A DNA stretch of 56,663 nucleotides, counting the filler, from Sphacelaria rigidula (Eukaryota): assembly GCA_964200075.2 (NCBI GenBank). It is 6 parts of 6 records of this genome, joined end to end, with 100 filler letters (N's around TTAATTAATTAA, not from the genome) between each part and the next. Parts side by side here need not be neighbours in the genome. Positions count along the whole stretch, not along the records: positions 37,845 to 47,204 come from CAXNAA020008679.1; 5 more parts are not named here. The stretch is one strand, 5' to 3'. The position numbers and the translations under genes were made by a program. Below the pieces are notes generated by a model. The model searched no databases, was not told where the DNA came from, and saw nothing but the letters and a program-made list of their open reading frames with translations. Of this stretch, positions 2,722 to 46,400 are shown in pieces (position 1 is the stretch's first letter; every line of letters starts with the position of its first letter).

Positions 2722-3038
2722 GAAGCTGATGACGTTATCGTCCTGGACGTGGCTTATTCATTGGCGTTCGGATGCTAGATTTGGTGACCCGCGTGTCGAG
2801 GGATATTACCGTTGCCGATCTTCGGTACCTTACTGCTCCGGTTAGCTCAAAAATACAAAATACAGATGAATACATGCCTTCGGGGCTCCTCCGCCCATCT
2901 GAGATAATAGCTGAGGAGCTGAGATTTTATTGTCCTTGATGTAGCTGCTCACTGGCGTTTGGATGCTAGTGTTAGTGACGCGCGTGTCGGGGGGTGTTTT
3001 CGCTGCCGATCTTGAGTACCGTACTGTCCAGTTAGCTC
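2722..3038. repeat. Diverged duplication of about 125 bp (2722-2848 / 2916-3038)
   Basis: Shared tggcgtt.ggatgctag...gcgtgtcg...gccgatctt...gttagctc. Confidence 0.8.
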
Positions 3039-3206
3039 TTGTGGTGCTGCGATGCTGTCCGTTGATGTTGTGTTCCTTCTTGTTGTCTGCAGCGTATGCG
3101 CGTTTCGATGCCTCGCTGAAAAACCCGTTCTAACTCTCCTTTTGAATACCGTAGAAATATTTTATATCATGTTTGACGTTTTTAAGAAAACCTTGAGGTC
3201 GCCTGA

Positions 3207-3699
3207 GCGAAGCGTAGCCTGACCCCCTGGGGGACTAACCCTACGACATGTAAATCCCTAGCAGTTCGTACATGAGCCCTGACCCAGGTCATGCTAGCAT
3301 AATAGGAAGCCTCATGCACCGGGTGCATCGTCGCGGGAAGTTGTAGGCCTGCCATGGCCAGTTGAGACCAGGTATCATTCATGTAATTAATTCACTCATA
3401 TTTGCCCACTCACACATAACACACACATACTGAAATCACCACTGAATCAAAATCAACACACCACTGAATCAAGTGGGGCGGGAAATCGTTCCTACAAAAC
3501 CATACGTCATGATCCCATATCTTCGGCACGCGAGAAGGCGTGTGCCCCCAGTAGATTTGTACTGCAAGCACTAGATAGGGTATACCTCAAATAAAATAAC
3601 TAGCCTCTTATTCGTCCTTCCCCTGTATGTCATGATCCAATCTTGATATCCATTTCCCTCGTATCCAGGTAGATCCTGGAGCGTACGTAAAATCGATTA
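3207..3699. repeat. Long direct repeat, copy 2
   Basis: Matches 1-493; its right end abuts the remnant of the copia 3' LTR. Confidence 0.95.
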
Positions 3700-3806
3700 T
3701 GCCCCGCATAATGTCCCGCCTGTTCACAGTGAACAAGCCTCCGTATTTTAGCTTGATGCTACTGAACATTGACTCACATATGTTCTGCAACATAAAATTC
3801 TTGACA
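3700..3806 (-). repeat. Copia 3' LTR, U3 end only (interrupted)
   Basis: Begins TGTCAAGAAT right after the PPT; the expected far end (+ strand tgttgaggaatatgg) is not found to the left. Confidence 0.7.
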
Positions 3807-3815
3807 CTCCCCCTC
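3807..3815 (-). promoter_or_regulatory. Polypurine tract (GAGGGGGAG)
   Basis: Purine run directly 5' of TG, downstream of the RNase H region. Confidence 0.8.
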
Positions 3816-4001
3816 AATGAAAGTAACACTCAGGAAAGATAAAGAAATCTGGACGGATGAATATTCTAGGCCTACTTATGCAAAAATGCTTGCATCTCTG
3901 CACATTCACTTCAATGCATTTGAATTCTCAACTCAACACTTTCTACGTTCTCATTTCTTCAAAACACAGTCGTTATCCAACCACACGCTAGAAAGTACGC
4001 A

Positions 4002-5732
4002 TCAGACCAGCTCCCTTGTTCGCGTCCTAATTTTAAGTCCTAAAGGTCTTGATTTCGTGCAGCAGATGCAGGTGACGTTGTTTGCCCACGTATTTCGTCC
4101 CAATGTCGTCGATGTTTTTCTTGGTGTCCACGTGATGAAGGGTGATCCTCCGCTTCTTAATAAGTTCTCGAATAAAGAAGTAGCGTAATTCCACATACTT
4201 GGTCCTTCCACTGTAGGTGCTGTTACCAGCACGTGAAGTGTTGAGGTGTTGTCGATGCGAACCGGAACACTGTGAAATGCCTCGCCGAATCCCAGCTCCA
4301 TCATCATGTCGGAACAGAACACAGTCTCCTTCATTGCTAGCGCTGCCGCCACAAGCTCAACTTCCGTTGTCGACTGAGCAGTTAGACCCTATATTCCGAC
4401 TTTGAAACTCACCGGAGCGTTCGAGAGCATGGCGATATACGAGGACATCGATTTCCCGTCATCCGGGTTGTTCCCCCAGTCCTCCCTTCTTGTATGTGAT
4501 ATCGAAACTAGCACTCCCCGCAAGGTAACGTAGAAGATGTTTCGCAGCACCCATGTGTGCTTTCGATGGTCTTGATATCGCTCTCGCAAGCTGGTTGACA
4601 GCAAACCGGATATCATACCAGGTCACTTGTGCTAGATACAATAACGAGCCGGCGATCGCCTGGTATCGCTGTGTTGCCGCCGGGTTCAGAAGTTGCTCTT
4701 CCGGTTGATTCAATGACAGCTCTGCTCCCGTTCCTGGCGTGCTCAGCGGATTGCAGTCCCCCATGCCGTACTTCTCGAGGACCGATTTGGTGTAGTTTTC
4801 CTGGCTGAGAGTGAGCGTCCCATTCTTCCGGTCTCGGGTAACTCTCATTCCGTGTACAAGTGACACGTCTCCCATGTCCGTCATTTTGAAACGAACCATG
4901 AGCTTTTCCTTGAGCATCTGTAGCACTGCCACGTCCCCTCCAACAAGGAGCACATCGTCCACGTAGAGGGTGAGAAGCGCGACAACATTCCTCTCTCCGA
5001 GAGCGGTGCTGACGGTATCGCCCTGGAGGTATCGGCTTTGATGTCGTCGTTGTCGTCGTTGTCAGTGAAGATGTAGATGCAGGGATCTGAAGCGAGAGAG
5101 GTGAAACCGATTTCCCCCAGAAATTTGTCCATCGTGTTCCACCAATTCAGTGGCGACTGGCGAAGGCCATATAACGATTTCCGGAGCTTCGTCACGAGAG
5201 GAACTCTCGTCACGGGATCGTTCTGCTCATAGCCCGGGGCCATCTTGGCGTAAAGTTCCTCTTCAACGGGCATGTTCAGAAACGCCGTCTGCACGTTCAG
5301 CTGGTAGCTTTCCCAGTCCATCTCCGCGGCCGCTGCAAGCACCATACGGAGGCTCTGTAGCCTACAGACGGGAGCGAAGGTGCCGCCGCAGTCGATGCCC
5401 GCTACTTGTTCCCATCCTTGGACGACCAGTCTTCCCTTGTATGTGTTGTCGGCTTTCACCTTGTACACCCACCGGGATCGGATCGCTTTCATCCCTGCAG
5501 GAATCGCCGTGAAGGGTACAAGCGTGAAGACATTATTGGAACGGAGACTTTCTATTTTTTTGTCTGATGCTGCCTTCCACTGCTTCGCCTCTGGCAGTCG
5601 CATTGCCTCTTGAAAGATGTTCGGCACTATGACCACGTTCTCCCCCTCCGCACAACTTCGAATTTGGGTGTTTGTGGCAGAGTACGCATACTCCAGAAAG
5701 GAAAGTCCATCCTCGTGAGCGATGTCTCGCAT
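4002..5732 (-). pseudogene. pol: Copia reverse transcriptase and RNase H, frameshifted
   Basis: SRWVYKVK, YKGRLVVQGW, LRKSLYGLRQSP, LYVDDVLL, YQAIAGSLLYL, WG(N)NPDDGKSMS motifs split over several ORFs (4881-5732, 4459-4962, 4002-4352). Confidence 0.93.
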
Positions 5733-5821
5733 ATTTGCCCTGGCGTAGAAATTGGCCAGAGTCCCCAGGCGCTTTAGCTCGCGGGCTTGAGCGTTTCTCG
5801 TGCTTGCGCCGGAAATGACGT

Positions 5822-7077
5822 CTATCGGGGCTTGTGGGTTAGCCCACGTGCTGACACGCGAAGAATCGCTGTAGGTGACGGTGTCGTAGCTGGAGGTAAA
5901 CCTTCAGTGACTCCCCCTCCTGGGGAGACTCCAGTAGGGACCTCTCCCGATGAAGATCCGATAACGTCGTTGACGCGGTCCGTCACGTCGCGCAGGTTTC
6001 CAAACAGTTTGATCATACGTTCGTGGTTGTTGGACGAGGATTCAGTAGACATGGTCATGGGGTCGTTGAAAAGGCTGATGCCAAGATTGCGAATGTCCCT
6101 CGCGAAATCATCGTCGGTTTCGTACTTGTTGCAAGAAGTATGATTCCATGGAAGGACATGAGGCGGGGTCTCAATGAAGACTACGTTTCGGCTTTCCACC
6201 ACACGCTTGGTGGCAGGGTTATATATCGGGTAGGACTTGCTGTTTAGGCTATAATCGCACAGTGATCCCTCCCAAGCCTTGTCCGCCATTTTCTTCGTAT
6301 GTATCTCGACATGTACAAAGGCCCGTGAGCCAATGACACGGAGATGAGAGAGATTCGCGTCATTACCGTATAACTTCTTGTATGGTGTCACGATGTCGAG
6401 CGCCGAATGAGGTACACGGGTGAGGAGACATGCCGCAGTGAACATCAATTCGCCCCATAAGAACGGTGGCAGTCCACTGTCCTTGAGCAGACAACGTGTC
6501 ATAGCTGCGAGGATGCCGCCGTCGCGCTCGGAAATCCCAACCTGCTACGGAGTATTCGTAGAGGCGTATTCATGACGAATACCAGTGCTGAGGCAGTAGT
6601 CCTCGAACTCTTGTCCCTTGTGCTCGCCGCCTTTATCTGTACGAAGACGTTGAACTCGTAGCCCCATCGGTATCACCACCGACTTAACAAAGGTCTGGAT
6701 CGTGCTGAGGGCGTCTCTTAGTTTTGGCCAGATAAACTACTCGATACTTGGTATGCTGATCGGTGATTTTAGACACGTAGCTGTAGCTGCAGCAGGTGTA
6801 GTTGGCCCCATGAAGTCGCCGGAGACGAGCTGGAGGGGAGTGTTCACCTTATAGTCCGCAGTTCTCGGGTGTGGTTGTTGTTTTTGCTTTTGCGTAGGGC
6901 GCATACGTCACAGGGTGGTAGCGTTCCATCGAAGCTGATACCAGAGCCTTCCACCTTCGGAAGTACGTTCAGGCTCTTGATGCCGACGCGACCAAGTCCA
7001 CGGTGCCAGAGGTTTGCTCCGGTGCTGACGTGCATAGCCACTCCAGGTTGCTGCTCCGCGTGGCTGCTCAGCTTCAT
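5822..7077 (-). pseudogene. Copia gag-pre-integrase and integrase, disrupted
   Basis: LWHRGLG..CDVC zinc-binding segment; MTRCLLKDSGLPPFLWGE; GSRAFVH..K..KAWEG and SRNVVFIE motifs. Confidence 0.9.
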
Positions 7078-8651
7078 GCGGAACGTGAGAGGTCTTGGTC
7101 ATGGATTGATTGTTCCAGGGGAAGCACGAACAATGAAGTTTCCAGTCGGGGATGATGTTGATCGAAGATGGCAATGATGCCTTGCTTGGTCGCCACTTTC
7201 ACGGAGAACAGATGACGCCCGAGTCCGGGGACGACGAAGCAAGAGAGGGCGACATGGTGCGCCTTCTCTTCTCTGTCGGTCACTGTACCATGAACTGTGG
7301 CAGTTTCAACCGCTTCGACTACATTATGTCCCCCTCTTACGATTTTGAACGGCCGTTCGAGGGCCGTGTACTCACTCGCCCGAGCTAAAGCACCCGACTC
7401 GAGATTGGTGTCCAAGTAGTGATTGGTCGCGCCGCTATCCACCAGCCAGGTTACGGAGTTGGTGTCGTTGGCTGTCCGAGCCGTTGGCACCGCCGCCATG
7501 AAAGCTGCTCCAGTACCCTCATCGAAGGCACAGAAGAGGTCAATCGTGTTTTTTCCAGCATGCTGTGGTGGGGTGGACGCACCGGAGGAAAACACTGGAG
7601 GAGCCGACTCCGTCATCACAGGTTGCAGGGATCCTCCGACTGTTCCGGACGAATTGCTGTATGCAGTCGTCGCCGCGGCAGACGGCGGGATGAACGACCC
7701 GGGGATGCTTACATTGGCGATGTTGGTGCTTCCATTCGTTGCTGCTTTATTTCGTTGTACCTTGAACTCGGCGTCGCTGTGTGTTGTTGTTCTATGATAC
7801 GAGCACCATTTTGATGCTTCTTTACCTCCGTTCTTCTTGCCTGCTTTTCGACGTCTCTGTGTCGGGTTACTCGGTCGTGTCCGACTTCGCTTGTTGTTCG
7901 GGTATTCACGTTGATAGTGCCCAAACCCCTTGCGAATGTGACAATGTATATCAGATGTCGTAGCCTGCATGGCCGCTCCAGGTCCGGCCACGGTTGGTGC
8001 AGTTGACGTACCAAAACTCCGATCATTGTACGCACTGCACATTGCGGTGCAAATGTTGCCGAGGCCGAAGTCGCGCTCGGTGTAGCATTTCGTGCGCACG
8101 AAGTCATACTCGGGGGTTAGCGCCTTGAGGATAATGTCCTCGTAGCGATCGTCGTGCATTTTATCCCCGAGACCCTCCAGACGCAGTCGAATTTCGTCCA
8201 TGTCTTGGAAGAAATTTTCGGGGTCTTCGCCCGGTTTCATCGTGCTGCTAACCAGCTGAGCGTGAACTGCCCACCTAGCCGCTTTGGTGTTGCCGTCGAA
8301 CTTCTCAACCAAGGCCTTCCACGCACCTCGCCCATCGCCGACCCGAAGGTCATCGAGATCTTCATCCTCTGTGTACAAGAACCGCCGGATGGTCGCAGCT
8401 GCAGGCCCGGTCGTTGAAAGGAACAACAGCGAAAAGAGGTCGCTGTTCTTTCGGTTCCATGCGCGCCCTGCTAGTTCGTCGGTAGGCCTTCGTTGACCGT
8501 TGAGAACGGAGAATATCGGCTTGTCAACGATAGAGATAGCTACTCGCAGCTGATCTTTCCATGCAATGAAGGTGTTCTTATCGTTCGAAAATGTCGGTAC
8601 CCGTTTGAATACGGCCGCTATGCGGTCGGAACCGGTGGCGGTGTAACTCAT
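7074..8651 (-). pseudogene. gag: Copia gag-protease (open reading frame of a defective element)
   Basis: About 525-aa frame from ATG 8651 with AWKALVEKF, IILKALTPEY, a decayed zinc knuckle (CHIRKGFGHYQREY) and protease LVDSGATNH. Confidence 0.9.
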
Positions 8652-8665
8652 CGTACAGAGAGCAA

Positions 8666-9063
8666 ATGAACCGCGCAACGCTGTACGCTTCGAGGCTTAT
8701 CAATGCTCGACGCGCAAGTGCGATTTCCCAGACTGTGCTGCCTTCCTGCGCGCACAGGTTTTCACTGTAGCTTGTACAGACTGCAGCTGGTGCAGGTTTC
8801 GTCGTCAGGGATGATGAAGTACGCAACGCTGTACACTTCGAGGCTTATCAACGCTCGACGCGCAAGTGCGCTTTCTCAGACTGTGCCGCCTTACTGCGCG
8901 CACAGGTTTCCACTGTAGCTTGTACAGGCTGCAACTGGTGCAGGTTTTGTCTGCAGGGATGATGAACTGCGCAAGGCTGTATGCTTCGAGGCATATCAGT
9001 GCTCGACGCGCAAGTGCAATTTCCTAGACCGTGCCACCTTCCTGCGCGCACAGGTTTAAACTG
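8666..9063. repeat. 148-bp tandem repeat (about 2.7 copies) in copia 5' UTR
   Basis: cgcaa(c/g)gctgta unit starts at 8674, 8822 and 8970. Confidence 0.9.
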
Positions 9064-18479: not shown

Positions 18480-18823
18480 GGTACCCGGTGCCGGTATTTG
18501 AGACATCTCATTCCCTGCCGATACCGACCCAATCCAGTATTTGGAGATCTCATACCTGCGATACATGCGATACCAGGGTATTTGGAGATTTCAATACCTG
18601 CTGTACCCGCCCAATCCGGTATTTTGAAATCGCATACCTACGATACCTGCGATACCAGAGTTTTTCGAGATTTCACGACCTACCGTACCCGCCCAATCCG
18701 GTATTTTGATATCTCATACCTACGATACCTGCGGTACTAGGGTATTTCGAGATTTCAATACCTATCGTACCCGCCCAATCCGGTATTTTGAAATCGCATA
18801 CCTACGATACCTACGATACCAGG
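18480..18823. repeat. 82-bp tandem repeat (two ~41-bp GGTAT...ATACC subunits), about 4 copies
   Basis: cccaatccggtattttga recurs at about 18526, 18608, 18690 and 18772; resembles DNA-transposon subterminal repeats. Confidence 0.85.
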
Positions 18824-23002: not shown

Positions 23003-23800
23003 TCCGTCTCGAAAGGGATGCGTGGTCAATGGTCAAATGACTAAGGCAAGCAACAAATGAGTACGCCCCCCCCCCACCCGCCAGCCTGGCTCGACGAAAC
23101 CCAACGTGCCCCGTCCCGGCTTTGTAGGGACGGACCCCCTTTGGGGTTGGCGTCAGTTGGCAATGACGCTGTACAACACGCCACTCATGGCGTAAGCCGG
23201 GCAACCAGGTTACTGTTTTGTTATGCGCTTGCGTTTTTTGTGCGGTGAGCATGATGGTGGTCGAGCTAGAACATATTGTGCGTGGTGGAACAACCTCAAT
23301 ACCGCGCAAAGGGGATGATCGTACTGCGTAGTGTTCAAATGGCGAGACACTCATGAGGCAGTGTGTAATCGTGGCTGTCTCTGGAAGTGGCGGTATCAGA
23401 GAATGAAGCAACTCGTCGAAGGCTGTCATCCAAATGCGAGATAAATAGTACGCTCCGGGCCGAACGATCCTAGCAGGATGAAACTCACCCTTCATGGGAC
23501 TCGCCAAACACATCATGGCGCTTCGCGCTCGGCAACTGCTTGCGAGCCTGGTCCGGCGAAAACCCGGCGTGCTACGTCCCGGCTTTGCAGGGATGCGAGG
23601 TCACAGGTCTTATGACTACGGCATGCAAGATCATAAATACGCCCCCCCCCCCCCCCCCCTCCCCGCACGGGTTGTTATACGGTGTAGACTTACTGCAAAG
23701 AGTAACGCAGAAAGTGAAAGGAGGGGGNNNNNNNNNNCACAGGTCTTATGACTACGGCATGCAAGATCATAAATACGCCCCCCCCCGCCCCCCCTTCCCT
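23003..23800. mobile_element. C-tailed repeat copy 2, preceded by an extra tail module; tail duplicated across a 10-N gap
   Basis: Same core as copy 1; tail module also at 23003-23080 and 23738-23800. Confidence 0.85.
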
Positions 23801-26800
23801 GATGGTTTCATCAGATTCGGAAAATATCTCCACAAGAGCATACAGCAAGTGAACTGGCCGGTCTGTCTCGAAGAGCTGATGTTTGGCGAACGTTTCAATT
23901 CAGAGGTAACGTTTATGAAACTGCCACCGGGACCGGAAAACCTCGAGTTCGGCAAGCAGTTCAGGCAACCGATCTCGAAGGTGGCGCGGCCGACAGGTCT
24001 AAAACGAATTAGGCTTCGAGGCGGCAATCGCGCCAGGGAAATCGCACGCCAGGGAAATCGCACGCCAGGTGGCGCATTGGCCGCCTGCGGTCAAGGTCGA
24101 AATCCTGAAGTAAGACTAAAGCGGAAATCATCCAAGAACACGACAGGGTACATATGCGGCAGCTTTTCGGGCGCAGTTTCCTCGAAAGAAATATTCTGGA
24201 CAGCTAGTGCGCGGTGCGAGTGGTAGCATAATGCGTGTGTCGTTCAGCGGAGAAGCTCGCGAGTGTGTTACCCCAGCGCCCCGGAGGTCGGACCGGTACA
24301 GTGAAACGAGGTAGGGGCGGATTTTGTGGGTTCGACCCCCGAAACATGGACAAGGTATACCCCGCCGTTTTTGGCCAGTTTGGGGGTACATGAAAAGTGT
24401 AGTGGGATGCCTGAAACGTCCGAGAAGCTGCCAGGAAAGGGTACATTTTGCCATTTCTGGCCAATTCAGGGTACGTTGGTCAACGGGTTCTGTTCCCGGC
24501 GGATAAACGGCATGTACTCGACCCCGTGTTTCGTCGTCTTTCCGAGACACGTTGCGTTGCTTTCCTTCAAACGTAAACTGCAAGAGGAAAAAAGAACAAC
24601 AGCACGCATGGTGCTTAGCGAAGCGGTAAAGCTGCGGGCATTTCACCGGAGCTGCATTTGTTTATTTGATTCAGAGAGTACATGGCTCACTTTTTTCTTT
24701 TCCCCTGTCTCTGTGACGTAGGAACACGTGTTCCCTGTTCTTTTCGTGGTTGTTCACAACGTTTGTTTCATTTCGGTTTTCGGGTGTTCGTTGGCCGAGC
24801 ATCCCATGTTTTTCTTTCTCCCTCGTTGGAATTTCATCGCGTACCTTCAGTTTCTTCTCGATTTGTCTGTTCCGTGTCCCCACCTTGTTTCAGCCAACCA
24901 CTCCTCGGCGGGATGCTTTATATAGGTCGCTTTGCGTTCCGCGCTCATTTGCATCTTTACTGTAGTAGATTTCTGCATGATACACGCACCTTGAAAGAGC
25001 GGTATCGTTTTGTTTCTCCCGTTTGGTTTTGTCGCTGTTTGCACCACCGGCTACGGGATGTTCGATTTTGTGTTTCCGACTTTGTTTTTTTCCTTATTTT
25101 GTACTTTTCGATAGCTGCGCTTCTCGTTTTCTTGCGGTTTTGTGCAGCACTGCTCTGTTTTTTTTTTTCAACGTACATGTATACATCGGTTCCCTGAGGA
25201 GTCTCCCGCGATCTCTCGGACGTTTCGTTTGTTAGCCATATCGCAACATGTATCCCACATTGTTGTGAGTGCATGCTTGTGATTTTTCCCATAGCCCTCT
25301 CCAGCTAGACTCGTTGTGTTCACAGTTGGTACCGTAGACCCATACGTATCTATGAAACTCCTCGCAGGTCAAGCGCGCTTGCCTGCATCCGTAGAGTTTC
25401 TGAACATACGGGCGCTAGATCTCTAACGCTGGTCCCTTCTCAGCTACAGGTAAGAAGCTCACGTCCAAGGAGATCGGTTTGTTAGAGAATGAGCAGCGAC
25501 CAGAAGGGACGATGCGAAGTATGCATGGAAGCGGGTGTGTTGTGTTCAAAGTATATGCGCCTGTCGTGGCTTGTGTGCAAAATACACCGTGTTCAACTGT
25601 CAACGTGGCAGAAACAATTGGTTCAACTGGTGAACCCAGCTCTAACAAAGAGAGCTCGCAGAGGCTGCACAGTGTGTGTTGGTTAAACACTTGCTTGTGC
25701 AGTAAAAGAAAATGCGGTTTAAACTTGGCACTTCACCTGGCCGAACTCAAATCAAACACAATCGGTCTCTACTCTACAGAAAACTGATGACAAGCTGGTA
25801 GGCTTACTTAAGGTGGGTCGCTTTGGAGAGTGATAGCGTAGAGCTAAGTCAATCTCTCGACAAAACTCTTGGATGCGATAAAACTGTTTATCCAAACTGA
25901 TGATATCTTCGACTCTTCGTATTTGACTCTTCACTATTCTGACAACATGCTTACTTTCTGTGTACGAGCTACGGGCTATGCAGCATTTGAGCTATTCTTT
26001 ATTCTACGAGGAATATTCCAAGGATCGGACAAGGAATGATTCGTCTGGAAATTACTTGGTTTCAGTGTATTGATTCAAATCGTAAGAATCAATCCCTAGG
26101 CTTTGTTTTCAGCGTTGCAACCCAGGTACACGCAGCCCAGAGGCTCAGACACGTGGAATGGCGCAAACGTTGTGTGGATACCCCTTGGACCAGCAGTCAA
26201 CGTTTTTCTCCCTTTTGGGCAATCAGGCCGAAGGAATCGTGGATTTGGTGATTCGAACCAGTGATGATTCGTCCTTACCGTGAAATATGCCACCTCTTCG
26301 GTTACTACTACGATCTTTGTTCTAACGATGAATCGTAACTGGTTTTACCGCTGATCTCGAGTATGTACATTCGGAACTGTTATTTCTTGAATCTCAGCAT
26401 GTTGCATGGCGTTTGCTATGTGTTTTGACTGGATCGTGGCAACGAAAAAAAAGTGATCTGCTCTCCATCTGATTCGAAGTTGAATCTGACACACACAATG
26501 TACAATGCATGCACTCGGTCGACCAACAGTGACCGGTCGATGTGCGTGGTGTTCCGTCGCGACCATCAGAGCTCGTATCGTCATAAGTCAAAAATGTAGT
26601 GATATGTGCACCTCAAATTGGTGTCTCTAGCCGTACCACTTCCTCGCTTCGAAAAAACACCGTGACTGCGCAACTTTTCCTGGCTGCATTATTCTGCACC
26701 TTCTCCAAACTTGCGCAAGGGTGGCGAGTGGTTTGACAACTGGACATATAGACTACCGCCACTCACCCCCCTCTCTGAGTATTTCGACTGCCGATATTTT

Positions 26801-30279: not shown

Positions 30280-30401
30280 AACAAGCGGGACAACAACAGC
30301 AAACCAGGGTATCAGAAAGCACGGTGGAAACAGCAGCAGCAGCAGCAGCAGCAGCAGTAATAGTAGACAACAACAACAACAGACAACAGACAAGCGACAA
30401 C

Positions 30402-30457
<56 letters not shown>

Positions 30458-30484
30458 GACAACAACAACAACAACAACAACACC

Positions 30485-30515
<31 letters not shown>

Positions 30516-30690
30516 GACAACAACAACAACAACAACAACAACAACCAACAACACGCAGCAGCGGCGCGGCAGCGACGAAAAACAGCACAGCCATGCGGCG
30601 AGCAGCAGCAACACACAGCGGCGGCACGGCAGCGACAAACAGCAGCACAGAACAACAGCGGAAACCACAACAACAGACAACAACAACGCG
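30280..30690. repeat. Compound (CAG)n/(CAA)n microsatellite
   Basis: Long CAA runs with frame-breaking interruptions. Confidence 0.95.
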
Positions 30691-35511: not shown

Positions 35512-37518
35512 ATGGACAACACATCAACATCGGGAGCAGCAGCAGCAGCGGGAGGAACAGCTTCGCAAAGCCAAGGCCAACACCCCCACAGCACAGCAGG
35601 AGCTCGAGCAAAGGCAGGAGCAAAAGAGGGAAGGGCCACAGGAAGGGAACCACGCCGAGCCTCGGCACCACAAGCCGGAGGCACGCACAGCAACCCGATC
35701 TCCGTCAACCAGCATGCCCGCCCGCAAGGTAGTGCAGGCCAGTTAAACACTGACGCACCTGCACCCCCCCCACCGCCACTCGGACCTCCACCAAGCCCAA
35801 GCGAGCCATCAGACATTTTAGCTCAAATCCTGCAGGCACAGGCAAAAACGAACATCAACATGGAACAGCAACACCAGCAAAGCCTCCACCGATAGCAGCA
35901 ACAGAGCCAGGCAATCTCGAACCTTCAACAGCAGGTACATCTTCTCCACTACGGACAACCACAACAGAGTGGCGGGGCCGTCCAAGGAGGGGTCGGCCGG
36001 CAGCCGGCGGGCGCCGCAAAGCAACAGCACATGGCGGGGGGAAGAGCAAACGGGGCCTCCCCGCTTGCACCCAGCGCCACACTGCCACCACCCATCGGAG
36101 GGCCACTACCGCATCACCAACTCCAACAGTCGCAGCCACATCACCATCATCAACAGCAGCAACAGCAGCAACAGCATCAACCTCGGCAGCACGAGCAGCA
36201 CCAACAACCGCAGACGCCGCAGCAACAACAGCAACCGCAGCCGGACCAGCACCACGTACAACAACTCCATCAACAGCAAGCACAGCCATACCACCAAGCA
36301 CAGCCGCAATCCCCGATCCACCAACTCCTTCAACTTCTCAGCGGCGGGGGAGGGGGTCAGATCCAACAACTCATGCATGCAATGGGAGCGGCCAACGCCG
36401 CCCCCGCCAGTACGAAGAAAGCCGAAGAAATGCAGGAGAAGCGGGATATCAACAGCTGGCTCTCGGACGAAAACAAGGCACTCTTCCACATCCTCAGGGG
36501 CGGGGTCTCCATTCCCATTCCCATGTCTGACGCAAACTTGAAACTAAAACTCCGCGACGTGGCCGACACCAACCGGGGCATGCTGAGCAATCTCCAGACG
36601 TTGACCGACGTAGACGTCACCAACTTCCACTCCCCGGTGCCGCCTGGCATAAAAAAACCCTACTTTCGCGCTGAGGTCCATGTCACAACATTCACCAAGG
36701 CGCTGACCATCATCATCAACTTCGGCACCACCGACAACGACGGCGGGCGGGATAGGCGAGCCTTCATCACAGTAGAACTGTCGAGGATGGCGTCGGCGCT
36801 GCACGCGTATACGGGGAAAAATTACGCCGCTCTACACAGAGACGAAGCGGCCGTCAAAACCCGCATAATCACTGACTTTAACCACGACATCAACGGGTGG
36901 CTCACAGAATGCAGGGACGCGGGATTGAACCTACGCAAAGAGTCTCCCGCCGCCCCACCCGCCAACAGGCAGGGCCCCGCGGCGCCGGTGCCATCGTTCA
37001 CCCGTGTAAAAACGCTCACCGCCGACGGCCACCCTAGCAGCCTCATCGGTCGCCAACACCCCGGGCTCGCGGTAGCACGCTCACCTGCGCAGCCCGCCCC
37101 CAAGACAGCCGTCAAGCAAAAGGCACTCCCCGACGGGGGTACGAGCAACGCGGTCAAACGTGTCGCTCACCGACCCCCACCGTACCCGCCCCAGTGGCAA
37201 CACCTTACGTCACCGAACACCGATTTCATTACGGAACTGGCGTCATGGGCCCCGCCGGCGGGCGTCTGCTTACGAGCTTGGCAGGGGCTCACATGCCCAC
37301 GGGGGCGCGGCTGCCGCCTCCCAGACCACATCAGCACCCATGAAGCCGTCGGAGGCCCTCCCCTCCAGCCGCCAACGGCGTTACCGATGCCTCCAACAGC
37401 ACCGACGGCGGCGTCGGCAAAACCACCAGCGCCGGCAGCATCGGCGACCGCAGCGAGTACAGTGGCGCGTTTTCCCCACAGCTTCGGCGGGAATGGCGGA
37501 GCTGGGCGGGGCACCTGA
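35512..37518 (+). pseudogene. Gag-like ORF1 of a probable DIRS/Ngaro (tyrosine-recombinase) retrotransposon with one nonsense codon
   Basis: ORFs 35497-35895 and 36031-37518 share a frame, split only by TAG at 35893; low-complexity Q/P/A N-terminus; C-terminal CCCH-like CLRAWQGLTCPRGRGCRLPDH; a second overlapping frame runs to the contig end. RT and YR are not visible. Confidence 0.55.
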
Positions 37519-37744
37519 GGGTGCGGGCTCCGCCAGTCGGCGGGGCCTACCAGTCTTGGGGGAGGAGGAGCACTGGTCACGGACTCAGCGAGGTCGGTGG
37601 GTATCGCCCACGCCCCCCAACCGGGGTCGGTGGCGGCAAGCTTCTTTCACGGTGAGAGCAGAAGTACCAACGCACGTAACAACCCATATGCACGTCACAG
37701 CGGTAGACCGCGTAGTTCCATTCCGCACTTCCCACAACCGAAAA

Positions 37745-37844
37745 NNNNNNNNNNNNNNNNNNNNNNNNNNNNNNNNNNNNNNNNNNNNTTAATTAATTAA
37801 NNNNNNNNNNNNNNNNNNNNNNNNNNNNNNNNNNNNNNNNNNNN
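37745..37844. other. Artificial contig linker
   Basis: Same cassette. Confidence 0.97.
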
Positions 37845-39399: not shown

Positions 39400-39893
39400 A
39401 TTTCGCAACAAGAAAAGTTGATCCATACTGTATACAGTCCATCTTCGGTTTCTCAAAGTAGAAAACAATGCAGAACTGCCGTGTTGTCATGTGTTCAGCG
39501 CAGAACTCTGTTGGCCATATACTACCGCAGAGTTGTCTTGATTTCAGCGTAGAACCCTGTACTCCATGTAATGGGGTCATATTTTGAGCAGTTTTTCGAA
39601 AAATTCTCGTTGTTTTTTAAATGTATTCCGAAAAGAACGCGAATGTTTTCTGTCACAGAAATGTAATGCCAGATCTGGAATAGCCTGAGACAACAACCAG
39701 TTCGAAAATTGGAAACAAACAAGCCAAATAACGCAATTTCCTCACCAGCCGGTGGGGGGGGCGTTTGCCCGCGCCGCGGATTGTTTTCCTGTGATCTAAT
39801 GAAAAACAATCGATGTACTGGCCGCTGGCGCGGCCAGTTGACTCAACTGGACAGAGTAGTCAGTCCACCGCCCTACCAATATTGGTTTTGCAC

Positions 39894-40310
39894 CTAGGAC
39901 CCCAGCATTTCGGCTATTGAGATCCAAATTTTCATTACGTGTAGTAGTTTTCGGAAGCTATCAGTAGGTCAAGAGATGGAACCATACTTGCAAGATTTGG
40001 TGTGGATACGAAGATTTGAAAGCTCCGGGTTTTCATCCCCAATGAAAGATTCATCCCCAATTTGTGAAATCCCATGTTTGTCGTACTTGAGATCGCGGCG
40101 TTATGCACTCAGGAAGCAAGTCGGCTCACGGGACATCACAGCCCCCCGCACACATACAACAACTTGGAAATCTGGTTGCAAATTTTGCTGAAGTAGCGAC
40201 GGCGGACCGGAAAAGCCCCCCAAAAGCCAAAAACACCTTATTGTTGTACGTTTGGGTTTACCGCGACTTAGTATCACGCGCAAACGCAATCAAGTAACTT
40301 GGGGACCTAG
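39894..40310. mobile_element. Possible MITE (11-bp imperfect TIR)
   Basis: ctaggacccca ... tggggacctag, one mismatch; non-coding interior. Confidence 0.35.
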
Positions 40311-40815
40311 CTTGGGTGTGAGGTAAGCGTACGCACGAAACCACAGTCCAATCCTCCGCCTCGTTGTCGATATCTAACCGTTGCGCGATCGGCACAACAC
40401 CATACAGCAACAAGATGGGCACAACAACGACACGAGCAGCGGTTTCTATCCTCCTGATGCTGTGACCTCCTGTACAGGAGTACAGAAACGTCGGTCACGC
40501 TCTGTTGTGGAATGCACTGGAATAATAGTACATTTTGTATGAGCGTGGCCATTTCGAAGTGACGCGTGTACTCTTTATTGATATGAATCGCCCAATTACC
40601 ATCCAATTGTTCGGCATACAGCGGTCGGGGCGGACTTTCCCGGGAAATAGTACCCAAAATCGGCCTCCATTCCGGCCCATAACGGTGACACGGTATCCCC
40701 CAGAAACAATCAAACTGATACTCATCGCCTAGATTTGTACGAATCATGACTTTCACTGAAGATGGATACTCTTGACGAGTGCTATGCTAAAGATACGCCG
40801 GGAAAAAAGCAGGAA

Positions 40816-41006
40816 CCTTTACGTTACACGTTCACATTCAACGCTTCACGTCAAACGTCAAGCCAGGCTAGTACTATGGTGGGGGACGGGGACCACGTGT
40901 TCATAAGTCAAGTCAGATCAGGGCTGCTCACGTGAGTCCCCGCCATGGTAGAAGCCTGGTTGAACTATTTACGTGAAACGTGAAACGTGAACGTGTAGCG
41001 TGTAGG
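40816..41006. mobile_element. Hairpin MITE-like element with ~80-bp imperfect arms
   Basis: acgttacacgttcac...ccaggct..tactatgg is the reverse complement of ccatggta..agcctgg...gtgaacgtgtagcgt. Confidence 0.75.
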
Positions 41007-43489
41007 GCCCCGCGAAAAAGGGCGTGCACGGTCCCTGTCAACAAGTTACGTCTCTCGCGGGCGGAAAAGGACGAAACTTGATCGGAGGAAGCAGACACGA
41101 TTAATTCAAACTTCACGCCCGCCCCATCCTCATCAATCATCACATCATCCCGTGCTGTCACATCAAAACCCGACTCCAACTGCGCTGTCCGGCGTAGCCG
41201 CTTCGTGTTCGTCCCAGTGGTGATGCCACTGCCGCAGCTTCTTTTCATAGCCGCGCCTCTGGAGTCACCATTGCCCGTGCTGCCGCGACTACTGGGTTGC
41301 GCAGTAAGCAGTTGGCCGCTACTTTTCAACCCCTTGAAAACACGCGCAGGCGCGACAGTCGTCCCTATTTCCAATTTCATGCGCGTCTCTGCCCGATCTG
41401 GAGAAACCCAATCTGTTGGGACTGCATCGGGGGGCGGTCCCAGAGCAGTACCCGGTGTTGTCAATTTGTCACCCCGTCGCCTAGTACCAATGGCTCCCGA
41501 GCTGAGAGAAACAGTAGCGTCGCGGTCACCATCGTTCGCGTTGGGGCCAACATCGCTCAGGTGGATTTCTTCATGGACACGTCCTGCTGCATCACACGAC
41601 ATGACCAGCTCGTGTGCAGCATGGGCGCAGATTTTCTCGTGTTCCCGAACCTGGTGAACACAGCGCTGCGACGTGTATTGATGACGCATGCCCGCCTGGA
41701 TGTGCAGGGCGCAGACCTCTGCCTTCGTGCCACCGGTTGCACCGAACGACGGCCGGTTGAAGTAGCCCTCCTGGACGCAACGCTTGTGTTTTGCGTCAAG
41801 CATATCCGCGCGGGCGTGCATGGCGCATAACTTTGTCATCTCGCCACCGGCTGCACAGAACGATGCTTGTTTCGAGCATCCCTCCTGGACGCAACGCTTG
41901 TGTTTTGCCTCAACCATGTCCGTCAGGGCGTGTGTGGCGCAATACTCCGCCTTCCTACTTTGGGCTGCACCGAACGATGGGCATTTGGAGCATCCATCCT
42001 GGACGCAACGCTTGCGTTTCACGTCAACCATGCCCGTCAGGGCGTGTGTGGCGCAATACTCCGCCTTCCTACTATGGGCTGCACCGAACGATGGGCGTTT
42101 GGAGCATCCATCCTTGCCGCAACGCTTGCTTTTCACGTCAACCATGTCAGCCCGGGCGTGTGTGGCGCATAACTCTGCCTTCCCGCCACCGGCTGAACGA
42201 AATGATGGTAGTTTGGAGCAGCCCTCCTTGACGCACTGCTCGCGTCCCGTAGCAACCATGTCCGCCCGGGCGTGTGTGGCGCAGAACACCGCCCTCTTTT
42301 CACCGGGTGTGCCGAACGATGGTTGTTTGGAGCATCCCTCCTTGCCGCACCGCTTTTTTCTCACATTAACCATGCAAGCCCGGGCGTGTGTGGCGCAAAA
42401 CTCTACCTTCCCGCCACCGGCTGCACCGAACGATGATTGTTTCGAGCAGCCCTCATGTTCGCACCGCTTGGCTTTCATGTTAACCATGCCCGCCAGGGCG
42501 TGTGTGGAGCAGAACTTCGCCTTCCTACTATGGGCTACACCGAACAATGGGTATTTGGAGCACCCTTCCTTGCCGCATTGCTTGCTTCTTACGTTAACCA
42601 TGTCAGCCCGGGCGTGTGTGGCGCAAAACTCCGCCTTCCTGCCACCGGCTGCACAGAACGATGCTTGTATCGAGCAGCCCTCATTGCCGCACCGCTCGGC
42701 TTTTGTGTTAACCATGCCCGCCAGGGCGTGTGTGGCACAATACTCCGCCTTCCTACTATGGGCTGTACCGAACGATGGGCGTTTGGAGCATCCATCCTTG
42801 CCGCAACGCTTGCTTCTAACGTTAACCATGCCAGACCGGGCCTGTGTGGCGCAGAACTCTGCCTTCCCTCCATCGGCTGAACCAAACGATGATCGTTTGG
42901 AGCAGCCCTCCTTGACGCACTGCTTGCCTTTTACGTTAACCATGCCAGACCGGGCGTGTGTGGCGCAGAACTCTGCCTTCCTGCCACCGGCTGCACCGAA
43001 CGATGAATGTTTGAAGCATCCCTCCTCGCCGCATTGCTTGTTTTTGACATCAATCATGCCAGACCGGGCGTGTGTGGCGCAGAACTCTGCCTTCCCGCCA
43101 CCGGCTGCACCGTACGATGGTTGTTTGAAGCATCCATCCTCGCCGCACCGCTTGTTTTTGACATCAACCATGCCAGACCGGGCGTGTGTGGCGCAAAACT
43201 CCGCCTTCCCGCCATCGGCTGCACCGAACGACGGGTATTTGGAGCAGCCCTCCTTATTGCACCGCATGCTGGCAACAGTGGCCATACCTGCCGGCGTGTT
43301 TGTGGCGTAGAACTCCGCCCTCTTGCCATGGGCTGCACCGGACGATGGGTAGTTGGAGCAACCCTCCGTGTTGCACTGCATGTCGACATCATTGGCCATG
43401 TCTCCCAGCGTGTTTGTGGCGCAAACCTCCGCCCTCTTGTCACCGGCTGTACCGAACGATGGTGATTTGAAGCAGCCTGCACCACACAA
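40928..43489 (-). CDS. EsV-1-7 cysteine-rich repeat protein (16 x 38 aa)
   Basis: 853-codon open frame; consensus C..EGCSK.PSFG.AGG.KAEFCATHAR.GMV.VK.KR. Track start is TTG, first in-frame ATG is 43399 and there is an in-frame stop at 43556-43558, so an upstream exon is possible. Confidence 0.92.
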   Translation of the reverse strand: MCGAGCFKSPSFGTAGDKRAEVCATNTLGDMANDVDMQCNTEGCSNYPSSGAAHGKRAEFYATNTPAGMATVASMRCNKEGCSKYPSFGAADGGKAEFCATHARSGMVDVKNKRCGEDGCFKQPSYGAAGGGKAEFCATHARSGMIDVKNKQCGEEGCFKHSSFGAAGGRKAEFCATHARSGMVNVKGKQCVKEGCSKRSSFGSADGGKAEFCATQARSGMVNVRSKRCGKDGCSKRPSFGTAHSRKAEYCATHALAGMVNTKAERCGNEGCSIQASFCAAGGRKAEFCATHARADMVNVRSKQCGKEGCSKYPLFGVAHSRKAKFCSTHALAGMVNMKAKRCEHEGCSKQSSFGAAGGGKVEFCATHARACMVNVRKKRCGKEGCSKQPSFGTPGEKRAVFCATHARADMVATGREQCVKEGCSKLPSFRSAGGGKAELCATHARADMVDVKSKRCGKDGCSKRPSFGAAHSRKAEYCATHALTGMVDVKRKRCVQDGCSKCPSFGAAQSRKAEYCATHALTDMVEAKHKRCVQEGCSKQASFCAAGGEMTKLCAMHARADMLDAKHKRCVQEGYFNRPSFGATGGTKAEVCALHIQAGMRHQYTSQRCVHQVREHEKICAHAAHELVMSCDAAGRVHEEIHLSDVGPNANDGDRDATVSLSSGAIGTRRRGDKLTTPGTALGPPPDAVPTDWVSPDRAETRMKLEIGTTVAPARVFKGLKSSGQLLTAQPSSRGSTGNGDSRGAAMKRSCGSGITTGTNTKRLRRTAQLESGFDVTARDDVMIDEDGAGVKFELIVSASSDQVSSFSARERRNLLTGTVHALFRGALHATRSRFTFHVNSSTRLLPWRGLT

Positions 43490-46400
43490 CCAGCATAGAT
43501 AATCATATGTCGTGCCACTGTGTGCTGGAGGTGCAATGTCATGAGGGCATCCGAGTCACCAAAAGACACGTGGCACGTAGGCTAAAGTGGACGACAACCC
43601 AACCGTGGAGTCAGCAGACGAGAAGGATAGCTACTGCAGCGTGGTAGCTACAGGCAGTATAGTGCCTTTTCCATGAGGACCACAGTCCCGTTGCTGCAAC
43701 TGCAGCATGGGCGACTTGACTAGGGGGGGCGTGTTCAACTTTGATCAGGCACAGAAGTCTATACTGTAGGTGGTTCGATGTAAGACCGGGTCGACCCATG
43801 CCGAGTGAGGCGGCCCTATATCGAAAACGGCGTACAATCGAGTCAGGGCCGCTTCGGATAAGGTTGAACCCGCTTCATGGAACCGGCCTCATGTCGGGTT
43901 GACAAGCTGCAAGTGTTGTCCCAGTCGATGGATAATTGAATCACTGCATTAACTTACTTTATTCATGGTGTGGTGTTGCTTCTGGAGTGATACGCACCCC
44001 AGCCTGTGGACCACGCGATGGTGCAGGACTGGCCCCTTCTGATTCAAGGCCAATTTTCGCGAACACAGGGAAAAGGGCCTCACATCAAAAGAGGTGTGAC
44101 ACGGGAATTTGGTGGCGAAAATCTGAAATGGCCTCATTGAAAGCGGCCTCATATCGGGTTGCCTACTATAGTGTCAAGGTCGCTGGTACGATTTGTCCAC
44201 GAATAGGATTCGCTCAAGTCGACGCACCAAGGGTCACTCTGCTTCCGTGCGGCTCGCATCGTGAGTACTACAAGCAGGACAGTTACATGTGAGTGACATC
44301 TGTCTGCCATAAACGATCGACCTCGAAAGTGCATAACAGGTGGGTGATCGTGTGGAGGTGGGCAGCACATGTCGATTCGATCACGCGTCTAGCACTGCAA
44401 TGCACTCTTGGGACACATCACTTCATCCTGTGTGGGTACTGGAGGGATGCTCCACACGAGTTGCGGTGACGGCGAGCACATTGTGTATACTACCGAGAAG
44501 CCATACGGCGCTTACTAGACGCTTGATAACAGGGAGCTGTACTCATATCAGTGGTCCCTGTCACCACCTGTATCCAAGCGCTACAGAGCTCCGAACGAGG
44601 GCAAGTTTGTGGGAAAATAGTCTTCACGAGGTCTAGTGATGATACTCCGTTGCTGCCCCTTTGCATGGAGGGTGGATACGCTGGACTTGTAACGCTTCAG
44701 AAGGGTGGAATGAAATGAGCTGGTAAAATGTTGGGCACGGAAGATTTTTCATACAATGCCAGGATGCGAAAACAAAGACTCTTGGGTATACTTTCAATAG
44801 TTCCTAGCCGAACAAGGGACTTTTTGTACATTGTTCGTAGTCCGCGATGTTTGACAATAGTGGACGACCAACGGGCTGGTTAACAGGTGGTTTTGTAGAC
44901 CGTTTTGGTCTTTGAAAATGTTGATTTTCGGCTCTAGCGCGATGGAAAGTATGATACAAGGAGGGGTTCATAAATTATTCACGCGAGCGATCGGGATCCA
45001 TCAACGCCGCCCCCGATGCTATTTAGTTTAGTGTAGCCCCACCCTCCCTCTGCAATACAGAAGTAGGTTTAACAATTTTCGTAGTAGCGTATTATCCTGA
45101 ATTCGCCAGCGTAGTGTTCTTCCTTTGCATCTGAAAGTCCTAGCGTCGATAGATCTTGGGACAAGAAGCGGGTGGTGTTCACGACACAATCTTCATGTTG
45201 GTGTTTGTCGCAGTGATTCAAAGTAAGGACCTCGTTCATCAGGGGGTGTTATTTACGGTCACTAGTCCAAGAAACACCGTGGCTCTTGTGCAACGACTAG
45301 GTAGAAACTGAAAACAAGAAATTCTCGCATCTTTTTACGAGAAATGTCGGGATTGCTCCAGTCAAGCAAAATTTCCCAAGGGTTGGAATCTGGGGCTGGG
45401 AAGTCGCAGGATTTCCGAGGACCCGTCAGCCCGTAAGCCGTTCAATCGTGTGCAGCGATGACTCTTGTGCGGGATGTGGGCCGGATGCGTTGTATCTCCC
45501 GGTCCAGAGTGGTTGTACGGTAGGGATGCATAGTTCTTTTTCAGGGTCTTGACTCTGGGAGTCTCTCGATGACAAACATCTAGGCCTCAGTGTGCAGCCT
45601 CACAAAACAGGTGGACTGAAAAAAAAAAAACATCGCAGGATCGTACACCTGTCAAACTCTACAATAAATCGTTCATCGGGATGAGCCGCGGCACGCGACA
45701 AAACTATCGAACATCGCCGACCACATAGAAGTACGAAAATCCCCACCAACAGGCGCCCTACGGCACAAGACGTTGGCATGACGCGAGGCAGAGCTTATCT
45801 GCGGGCCATGCAGACGGTGGACGTATGGAGGTGTGGGTCTATCGATACCTCAGCAGCTGTGACTCGTGCGTCCATTCTTCACGTGGTGCACTTGAAAAGG
45901 ACAGAGCTGAGTACACTTGGCATAGGGACTACTCCGGGGTAAACGTTATGACACAAGGACACGCAAATCACAAAATACCTGACCGTGTATTCGCCTCAGG
46001 GAATGAGAATACCCTGGCATGGCACAACTGTTTTGAGAGAGGATTCCGAAAGAATCATGTCTGATGGAAACGCAACCAATCGCCACCTCCCCTGTTTGGG
46101 CTCGGGAGTGACACTCGGGGCTATGAGCTCAGGGCCATGAAATATATCCCGGAAATTGGTACATTCACTCGTCAAGGCCACTGCACGCCGTGGCAAATAA
46201 AATATCTCTCCATACAGAAGTGGAGTCCGGGTTACTTCGCGATTGCTGAGACTGTTGCAGCCGGAAACGGTACGGTGTGCTGAAGAATTTACGTCGTTCC
46301 CAGGAAAAAAAAGACAACAAAAACATCACCGAGTCATTTCACGAGAAATCGACGTCATGACATCATGCGCTCCGCTGCTATAAGCCATACGCACGCAAAA

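Follow-up and report, generated by a model that had tools for sequence, protein, structure and literature searches.

A sixteen-module EsV-1-7 array from the brown alga Sphacelaria rigidula with two module-specific positions: a candidate modular DNA-binding domain

We analysed a 56,663-nucleotide stretch of DNA from Sphacelaria rigidula (assembly GCA_964200075.2; six genome parts joined with filler, referred to throughout as the window) that carries, on the minus strand of the part taken from CAXNAA020008679.1, a gene for a long tandem array of EsV-1-7 cysteine modules. EsV-1-7 proteins are reported to be among the largest gene-family expansions of brown algae and to include the developmental regulator IMMEDIATE UPRIGHT (IMM) (10.64898/2026.04.27.720984), and the function of the domain is treated as unknown in the accessible text of brown-algal preprints, an EMBO J review and PMC12477816. 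We found that two positions of the 38-residue module, 9 and 36, escape the homogenisation that other variable positions undergo within arrays, and that they are joined by position 11 in relatives that carry a nuclease domain. The identity of the gene is settled: it is an intact brown-algal nuclear gene encoding an unusually long new member of a known family, otherwise ordinary. As to what the array does, we put the chances that it is a modular DNA-binding domain at about even, and we consider a simple code like that of transcription activator-like effectors (TALEs) very unlikely.

The array was located with Tandem Repeats Finder, assigned to its family with Pfam, and cut into modules in register from the first Cys. 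Tandem Repeats Finder returned one tandem array at 41708-43474 (period 114, 15.5 copies, 78% matches, 0% indels, score 1545). Its host frame on the minus strand, 40928-43489, has 853 codons plus a stop when counted from TTG and extends from stop to stop over 40928-43555. The protein matches the Pfam family EsV_1_7_cys (PF19114) over 15 stretches with an E value of 1e-182 and 592 bits against a cutoff of 25, and modules 3-16 alone give 14 such stretches. The original prediction had described sixteen collinear 114-bp modules in one open frame, most of them keeping C-x4-C-x16-C-x2-H, and had listed the two residues that follow GC(S/F)K in each, without naming the minus strand. This description was borne out: the sixteen 38-residue modules lie in exact 114-bp register at 41666-43489 without an indel, the ligand set is complete in 12 of them, and every one of the sixteen dipeptides is correct. 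A six-frame search of the window with a hidden Markov model (HMM) built from the modules returned exactly these sixteen and no second EsV-1-7 gene. Protein identity between modules ranges from 29 to 84% (median, 55%), and the array is basic, with an isoelectric point of 9.3 and 97 Lys plus Arg residues against 52 Asp plus Glu. Each module is predicted to bind one zinc ion through its four ligands.

Modules lying six apart are unusually alike (42008-42919), with 89% nucleotide identity between modules 6 and 12 and 90% between modules 7 and 13, and modules 7, 9, 13 and 14 form one clade in the module tree. The likeness of modules six apart hints that the array may have grown partly by block duplication.

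Within the array, entropy is highest at position 36 (3.0 bits), followed by positions 9 (2.48 bits, 7 residue types), 3 (2.35), 33 (2.05), 18 (2.01), 34 (1.97), and 2 and 35 (1.92 each). Position 10 is Pro in 11 of the 16 modules (1.2 bits), and position 11 is Ser in 15. We also drew 671 distinct family repeats with the window-module HMM (796 matches; rows with more than six gaps dropped) from 120 listed homologues of the window protein. Across these repeats, position 9 ranks third in entropy (3.41 bits), while position 10 is Pro in 75% and ranks 30th of 38. The original prediction had placed the variation in a pair of residues, positions 9 and 10, on a conserved scaffold. Position 9 is indeed hypervariable, but position 10 is a conserved Pro both here and in the family, and variation is not confined to any such pair, as eight positions reach at least 1.9 bits within the array. 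Because sixteen positions reach at least 2.85 bits across the family repeats and position 10 is mostly Pro, plain variability fails to single out the pair.

Diversity among the modules of one and the same protein gave a sharper picture. Seventy homologues have four or more modules each (403 modules, once rows with more than two gaps are left out). In these arrays within-array diversity peaks at position 9 (0.82), the most module-specific position of the whole family, which ranks in the top three for diversity in 38 of the 70. When modules from the same protein are at least 75% identical (180 pairs), they differ at position 9 in 69% of cases, at position 36 in 67% and at position 11 in 50%, while the next most-differing position reaches only 33%. 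Among homologues with both the nuclease and four or more modules (45), the ratio of within-array to between-protein diversity reaches 0.95 at positions 9 and 11 and 0.93 at position 36 (bootstrap lower bounds, 0.89-0.92), compared with 0.86 at position 35 and no more than 0.75 at all remaining variable positions. Positions 36 and 9 lead again in 13 brown-algal arrays (0.93 and 0.85) and are the top two in the window's own array (0.92 and 0.84). Together, these data show that positions 9 and 36, plus 11 in the nuclease-bearing relatives, escape homogenisation, varying among the modules of a single protein nearly as strongly as among unrelated proteins, while the other variable positions are homogenised within arrays. 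The real partner of position 9 is thus linker position 36, with position 11 added in the nuclease-bearing relatives.

The frame of the array has been maintained. The module tree holds about 351 substitutions, and 4.2% of single-base changes in these codons would create a stop, such that about 14.7 stop codons would be expected without constraint; we observed none (P about 4e-7), and no indel has entered any of the sixteen copies. Splitting the positions by family-wide conservation, which is independent of the window's array, gave a between-module ratio of nonsynonymous to synonymous rates (dN/dS) of 0.46 for the 18 conserved positions, 1.47 for the 16 variable ones and 0.83 overall. In the window's four independent sister-module pairs, the set 9/11/36, defined on other proteins, carries 8 nonsynonymous differences where the synonymous rate predicts 3.48 (Poisson P 0.026), and the other 35 positions carry 38 where 41.5 are predicted.

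The link to DNA comes from the relatives. Among the named homologues, the best come from brown algae (Sphacelaria, Scytosiphon, Pylaiella and Ectocarpus), with Sphacelaria rigidula itself in first place, and the array also matches metagenomic nuclease-fused relatives with E values down to 1e-103. A single large family of non-repeat segments, mostly C-terminal, is shared by 96 of the 120 homologues, and 86, all metagenomic, carry a C-terminal RPD...ExDExxH...IRxNPD domain. In an alignment of 82 of these, R440, P441, D442, D457, E458, H461, R472, R489, N491, P492 and D493 are invariant (numbering of homologue P0004). The AlphaFold model of P0004 (predicted local distance difference test score [pLDDT], 89.4) finds its best VIA-align match in the catalytic domain of I-Bth0305I (3r3p_B; Z 8.5, root mean square deviation 3.2, 95 of 98 residues), followed by Vsr (1cw0_A, Z 7.8) and the putative endonuclease 3hrl_A (Z 7.1); a Z of about 8 barely exceeds the level common for VIA-align, and the match to 3r3p_B spans the whole of the small domain. 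Foldseek gave no row below an E value of 0.001 with the same model, and its top rows are mostly restriction-endonuclease-like nucleases; a clear ranking came from VIA-align only. We therefore predict from the P0004 model that the C-terminal domain of these 86 homologues is a Vsr/I-Bth0305I-like nuclease. Extra Cys modules stand ahead of it in the nuclease-bearing relatives. I-Bth0305I defines the EDxHD family and has DNA-binding NUMOD motifs in its N-terminal region (PMC3239194), and phage homing nucleases reported in 2025 carry three to five CapR-like modules, likely DNA-binding, before an EDxHD/Vsr domain (PMC12350094). In Ectocarpus, a Tc1/mariner transposase is reported to have acquired an N-terminal EsV-1-7 domain (PMC12477816).

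Two homologues carry further domains. The helicase-associated (HA) domain on P0079 (E 9.2e-23) is a real match but a single case, and the ELO fatty-acid elongase domain on P0018 (E 1.3e-46), also a single case, may reflect a gene-model fusion. Sub-threshold Pfam names on relatives (Zf_WRKY19, CoV_NSP13_ZBD, Phe_ZIP, PH_NDK7_N, Gallidermin and IL8) were rejected as repeat-inflated noise.

The nuclease fusions, the transposase fusion, the ligand spacing of zinc site 1 in SBP domains and the basic charge of the array make DNA binding plausible. The nucleic-acid-binding array of the original prediction survives to that extent, with a partner for position 9 other than position 10. We propose a model in which each 38-residue module would fold round one zinc ion, combining a Cys1/Cys6 knuckle, a short hairpin, and Cys23 and His26 at a helical turn. 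Conserved Lys or Arg residues at positions 8, 19, 27, 37 and 38 would hold the phosphate backbone, and a small exposed patch on each module would lend it a contact preference of its own. Its residues would be position 9 of the module itself and position 36 of the linker before it, joined in the viral relatives by position 11, all arranged round the conserved Arg38. The tail would add nuclear import or regulation and so make the protein a nuclear targeting or regulatory factor.

For the fold, we used an AlphaFold2 model of six modules (modules 3-8; alignment of 78 rows; pLDDT 87.5), which contains no metal. Each module is predicted to have short strands (12-14, 22 and 31-33) and a helical turn (24-26), and three of the five junctions also show lone strand marks at position 38 and, in the module that follows, at position 9. 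These marks may represent an antiparallel bridge across the Cys1-Cys6 knuckle. If this bridge holds, positions 36, 38, 9 and 11 would lie on one face, with the conserved Lys37 and Pro10 on the other.

A number of observations weigh against DNA binding through such a patch. The one-face arrangement is read from a secondary-structure string of the model, and with a predicted template modelling score of 0.46 no fixed superstructure is predicted. Foldseek with the six-module model against the PDB gave nothing below an E value of 1 (best, 1.6), and VIA-align found no chain that reached a Z of 2, either among 48,161 or in a second look at 32, although a 38-residue module inside an elongated 228-residue model makes a poor query for a fold search. 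PDB sequence searches gave 0 matches for each of the module profiles A1 (at E values up to 10) and A2, and only chance rows for P0004 (E 0.28) and for the six modules (E 1.5). At the profile level, the SBP likeness stays below threshold: with relaxed settings, positions 1-38 of the 75-position Pfam SBP profile (PF03110) fall in register with one module of the window's array, at E values of 0.0023 and 0.00039 and 18.7 and 21.1 bits against a cutoff of 27. Matches of this sort occur in 10 of 78 scanned array proteins. As repeat arrays give similar or better spurious matches (Gallidermin at 1.5e-11, for example), we treat this likeness as a lead, with homology not demonstrated. The nuclease motif occurs in 0 of the 11 named brown-algal homologues, and in the grouping of non-repeat segments the window's tail fell with three Sphacelaria tails alone and not in the large C-terminal cluster. 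Since the brown-algal proteins are without the nuclease, their link to DNA is one of association, through distant relatives. Between position 36 and position 9 of the following module, coupling is weak (z 2.5, p 0.014, 16 tests made); it agrees with the shared face but is not robust.

The pattern of recent change points the same way. Four independent pairs of sister modules have 46 nonsynonymous and 13 synonymous differences, for a ratio of the corresponding proportions (pN/pS) of 1.02; tested separately in these pairs, neither the conserved nor the variable class departed significantly from neutrality (p 0.24 and 0.47), with little power from four pairs. Given this ratio and the dN/dS of 0.46 at the conserved sites, the scaffold has been under purifying selection over the lifetime of the array, and recent change is close to neutral. 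Position 9 itself, over all module pairs, has a pN of 0.575, equal to its own pS of 0.563. Since change is near-neutral, the hypervariability could be a mere lack of constraint in an exposed loop, and together with the four broken modules the recent pN/pS weighs toward some relaxation.

These last observations lead to the reading that the array is a recently over-expanded, relaxed copy, a young open frame drifting neutrally with no reading function. We think this quite improbable. The between-module dN/dS of about 0.83 and the sister pairs fit it, as do the loss of a zinc ligand in 4 of the 16 modules, the missing ATG ahead of module 1, an array two to five times the length of those in the nine array-bearing relatives with a tail of this kind, and transcription not being on record. 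It sits poorly, however, with a frame free of stops and indels, with the constraint on the scaffold, with a tail 62% identical to that of another Sphacelaria rigidula protein (P0001), and with the match between the array's two most variable positions and those of independent arrays in distant relatives.

Another alternative is that the fast-changing patch recognises proteins, with the array serving as a protein-protein interaction or adaptor scaffold, for instance in host-virus conflict. Protein binding is common among multi-zinc modules (LIM and PHD are examples), and the weak Foldseek rows obtained with the six-module model are of that kind; the rate of change at positions 9 and 36, about double the synonymous one, would suit an arms race just as well; the domain has been linked to giant viruses (10.64898/2026.04.27.720984); and the window holds a frame of FNIP repeats, another virus-linked repeat. 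We nonetheless judge this reading unlikely, as the commonest fusion partner is a Vsr-like nuclease, in a place where related homing nucleases hold DNA-binding modules, and as the transposase fusion, the strong net positive charge and the spacing of SBP zinc site 1 all speak for DNA. Binding of RNA, as CCCH fingers often show, with a post-transcriptional role, is suggested by the Cys3His ligand set and the basic surface; but the spacing is unlike that of the classical RNA-binding C-x8-C-x5-C-x3-H finger, and the recurrent fusions are to DNA-acting enzymes, so we give this alternative very little credence.

If the array does bind DNA, it would hardly do so by a one-module, one-base rule. The original prediction had likened the array to TALEs and supposed that each module reads a base or short motif; the repeats are far from near-identity (29-84%), and the analysis lent no support to such reading. 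A bolder proposal, which we regard as a long shot, is that these arrays join C2H2 fingers and TALEs as a third natural class of modular DNA readers that can be re-targeted. In such a class, every 38-residue module would read a short step of DNA through a three-residue patch (36 of the linker before it, 9 and 11, round Arg38), arrays would aim giant-virus Vsr-type nucleases, and brown algae would have domesticated them, nuclease-free, as expanding nuclear regulators, this protein of 14-16 modules among them. Our literature search, which did not extend to preprint supplements, found no paper linking EsV-1-7 with a nuclease fusion, SBP or DNA-binding data; PMC12477816 mentions EsV-1-7 and endonuclease, and the EsV-1-7 passage in its accessible text concerns the transposase, with no binding data. 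Positions 9 and 36, with 11 in the viral relatives, stand out in algal and nuclease-fused arrays alike, which makes the question testable. Should they prove to face DNA, EsV-1-7 proteins would make up a large set of sequence-specific regulators, and their modules might offer a new scaffold for programmable DNA binding; otherwise a code can be discounted throughout the family.

The N terminus of the protein depends on the choice of start (Table 1). No in-frame ATG precedes module 1. All nine array-bearing tail relatives, as annotated, begin at Met31 of a partial module, eight residues ahead of the first Cys, and translation therefore probably starts at 43285 or 43399, giving 14 or 15 translated modules. 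Modules 1 and 2 are the most decayed and, with a downstream start, would be a leader or relic.

The tail is probably disordered and has few relatives: an exhaustive search of 1.84 billion representatives found only 20, one of them a fragment of 139 residues that coincides exactly with a portion of the window's tail, and a protein atlas search with the tail gave no usable match. Identity to the tails of three Sphacelaria rigidula proteins is 62% (P0001), 43% and 37%. The nine array-bearing relatives have 3-7 modules, and the window's 16 are the most in this tail subfamily. No Vsr-like domain was found in the tail at the level of Pfam families; the scan for the RPD...IRxNPD pattern covered the 120 homologues only. 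An acidic patch and two hydrophobic-K-x-E motifs are conserved across the window's tail and the three Sphacelaria tails. The basic KRLRR cluster is predicted from its sequence to act as a nuclear localisation signal. VKFE and MKLE may resemble the SUMO consensus, and we take the conserved tail motifs (basic cluster, K-x-E motifs and acidic patch) to be predicted signals for nuclear import and regulation.

Table 1. Features of the EsV-1-7 gene, in window coordinates
Feature	Position	Strand	Basis or remark
Open reading frame, 853 codons plus stop (array and C-terminal tail)	40928..43489	-	Pfam PF19114, E 1e-182
Degenerate module 1 (ligands 1 and 26 are Leu and Asn), possibly untranslated	43376..43489	-	HMM, E 1.3e-19
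Degenerate module 2 (ligands 23 and 26 are Tyr and Asn), possibly leader or untranslated	43262..43375	-	Module HMM
Modules 3-15, thirteen of 114 bp, ligand set full in twelve	41780..43261	-	Module HMM
Module 6, Gln replaces His26	42806-42919	-	Module register
Module 16, last and most divergent (Tyr at ligand position 6)	41666..41779	-	Module HMM, tree
First in-frame ATG, Met31 of module 1, candidate start	43397..43399	-	Start choice inferred
ATG, Met31 of module 2, candidate start, register M-x7-C	43283..43285	-	By comparison with tail relatives
C-terminal tail, 245 residues, without Pfam family	40931..41665	-	Related only to tails of a few relatives
MKLE, second hydrophobic-K-x-E motif	41369-41380	-	Tail alignment
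Basic cluster KRLRR in tail	41189..41203	-	TK[RW]LR[RWM]T in window tail and three Sphacelaria tails
VKFE, within conserved VK-x-EL-x-VSA-x-S near tail end	41105..41116	-	Tail alignment
Stop codon TGA	40928..40930	-	End of open reading frame
Flank 3' of the stop, possible 3' untranslated region	40104..40927	-	Gapless contigs shared with tail, three runs guessed to be RNA

Contigs from three sequencing runs (X6-X8), guessed to be RNA, are collinear with 40104-42240 and with pieces up to 43221. They hold no believable joint, so that, if those runs are RNA, the covered part shows no intron. The contigs leave 43319-45128 uncovered, where the DNA-like run X1 continues, and this gap was given no weight. 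A candidate intron from 41704 to 43096 was rejected; it appeared in one contig with 22-23 foreign letters and was taken as a repeat mis-join or a paralogue. On the 3' side, high-copy repeats lie at 39500-40100 and at 40706-40906, touching the region of the stop codon; summed contig depth in the DNA-like run X1 is 2000-8000 over these repeats, compared with about 28 in the gene.

The gene sits in ordinary host DNA. Comparison of the 14 largest frames of the window with Pfam gave four matches (three copia-type, at 4.9-8.7 kb, and one FNIP) and ten frames that match nothing, and with only copia-type domains and one FNIP repeat among them a provirus was rejected. A single 28-nucleotide pair of possible terminal inverted repeats round the gene, 79% identical, was judged to be chance. 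The body of a copia-type long terminal repeat retrotransposon lies at 4459-8696 on the minus strand, with RVT_2, retroviral SH3-like, Retrotran_gag_2 and Pol beta-barrel domains, and is probably decayed, as it is split over several frames. The FNIP-repeat open frame lies at 23474-24223 on the plus strand (PF05725, E 4.5e-07); FNIP is the other virus-linked repeat family named beside EsV-1-7 (10.64898/2026.04.27.720984). A GC-rich stretch (0.587) at 35754-37792 on the plus strand has CAG/CAA-type repeats and a 540-codon frame without a Pfam match, which may be a Gln-rich exon. The microsatellites (CAG)9 and (ACA)60 at 30331-30553 create frames longer than 150 codons in several phases at once; these are low-complexity artefacts and not genes. 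Two unrelated, non-coding tandem arrays at 18528-18823 and 55578-55927 have units of 82-84 bp in 3.6-3.7 copies with 75-87% matches. A run of 7.5 copies of a CTAACC/CCCTAA-like 6-mer at 53196-53246 resembles an interstitial telomere-type repeat.

Among known systems, the window protein shares with the brown-algal EsV-1-7 proteins its Pfam family and its tandem 38-residue Cys3His modules and, like all Ectocarpus members as reported, has no other Pfam domain (10.64898/2026.04.27.720984). It has 16 modules where IMM is reported to have 5, and a different, lineage-restricted tail. It is not an IMM orthologue, a statement made with no search aimed at the IMM-specific N-terminal domain. With the metagenomic, giant-virus-like nuclease-fused arrays it shares the repeat family and the hypervariable positions 9 and 36; those arrays differ in their C-terminal nuclease and in a third hypervariable position, 11. 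Their architecture, and thus that of the window's distant relatives, is in turn shared with phage nucleases that join CapR/DUF4379/DUF723-like modules to an EDxHD/Vsr domain (PMC12350094; PMC3239194), although the phage modules are about 60 residues long and belong to other Pfam families, none of which matches the window protein at E values up to 10.

The CX4CX16CX2H spacing of SBP zinc site 1 (10.1101/2021.08.22.457055) is identical to that of 12 of the 16 window modules. The second, interlocked SBP site, CX2CX3HX11C, is absent from the window protein, in which 11 Cys-free linker residues follow His26, and SBP is a single domain whereas the window protein is a tandem array.

TALE repeats are helical and nearly identical, differing at two adjacent residues. 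The window array resembles them only in having one variable site per tandem repeat. Its modules are 29-84% identical and are predicted to be strand-rich with a three-residue turn rather than helical, and its leading variable positions lie 27 residues apart, or 11 when position 36 is counted from the module before. The likeness to poly-C2H2 proteins such as KRAB-ZFPs goes further, with tandem zinc modules, a conserved linker, few module-specific positions, a homogenised scaffold, and a module number that varies on a constant tail among paralogues. The modules themselves differ: a C2H2 finger module has about 28 residues compared with 38 for EsV-1-7, the window's ligands are Cys3His with another spacing, and in place of a recognition helix only a three-residue helical turn is predicted; no zf-C2H2 match was found in the window protein even at E values up to 10. 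Taken together, these comparisons suggest that the logic of the array would be closer to that of a poly-zinc-finger protein than to that of a TALE.

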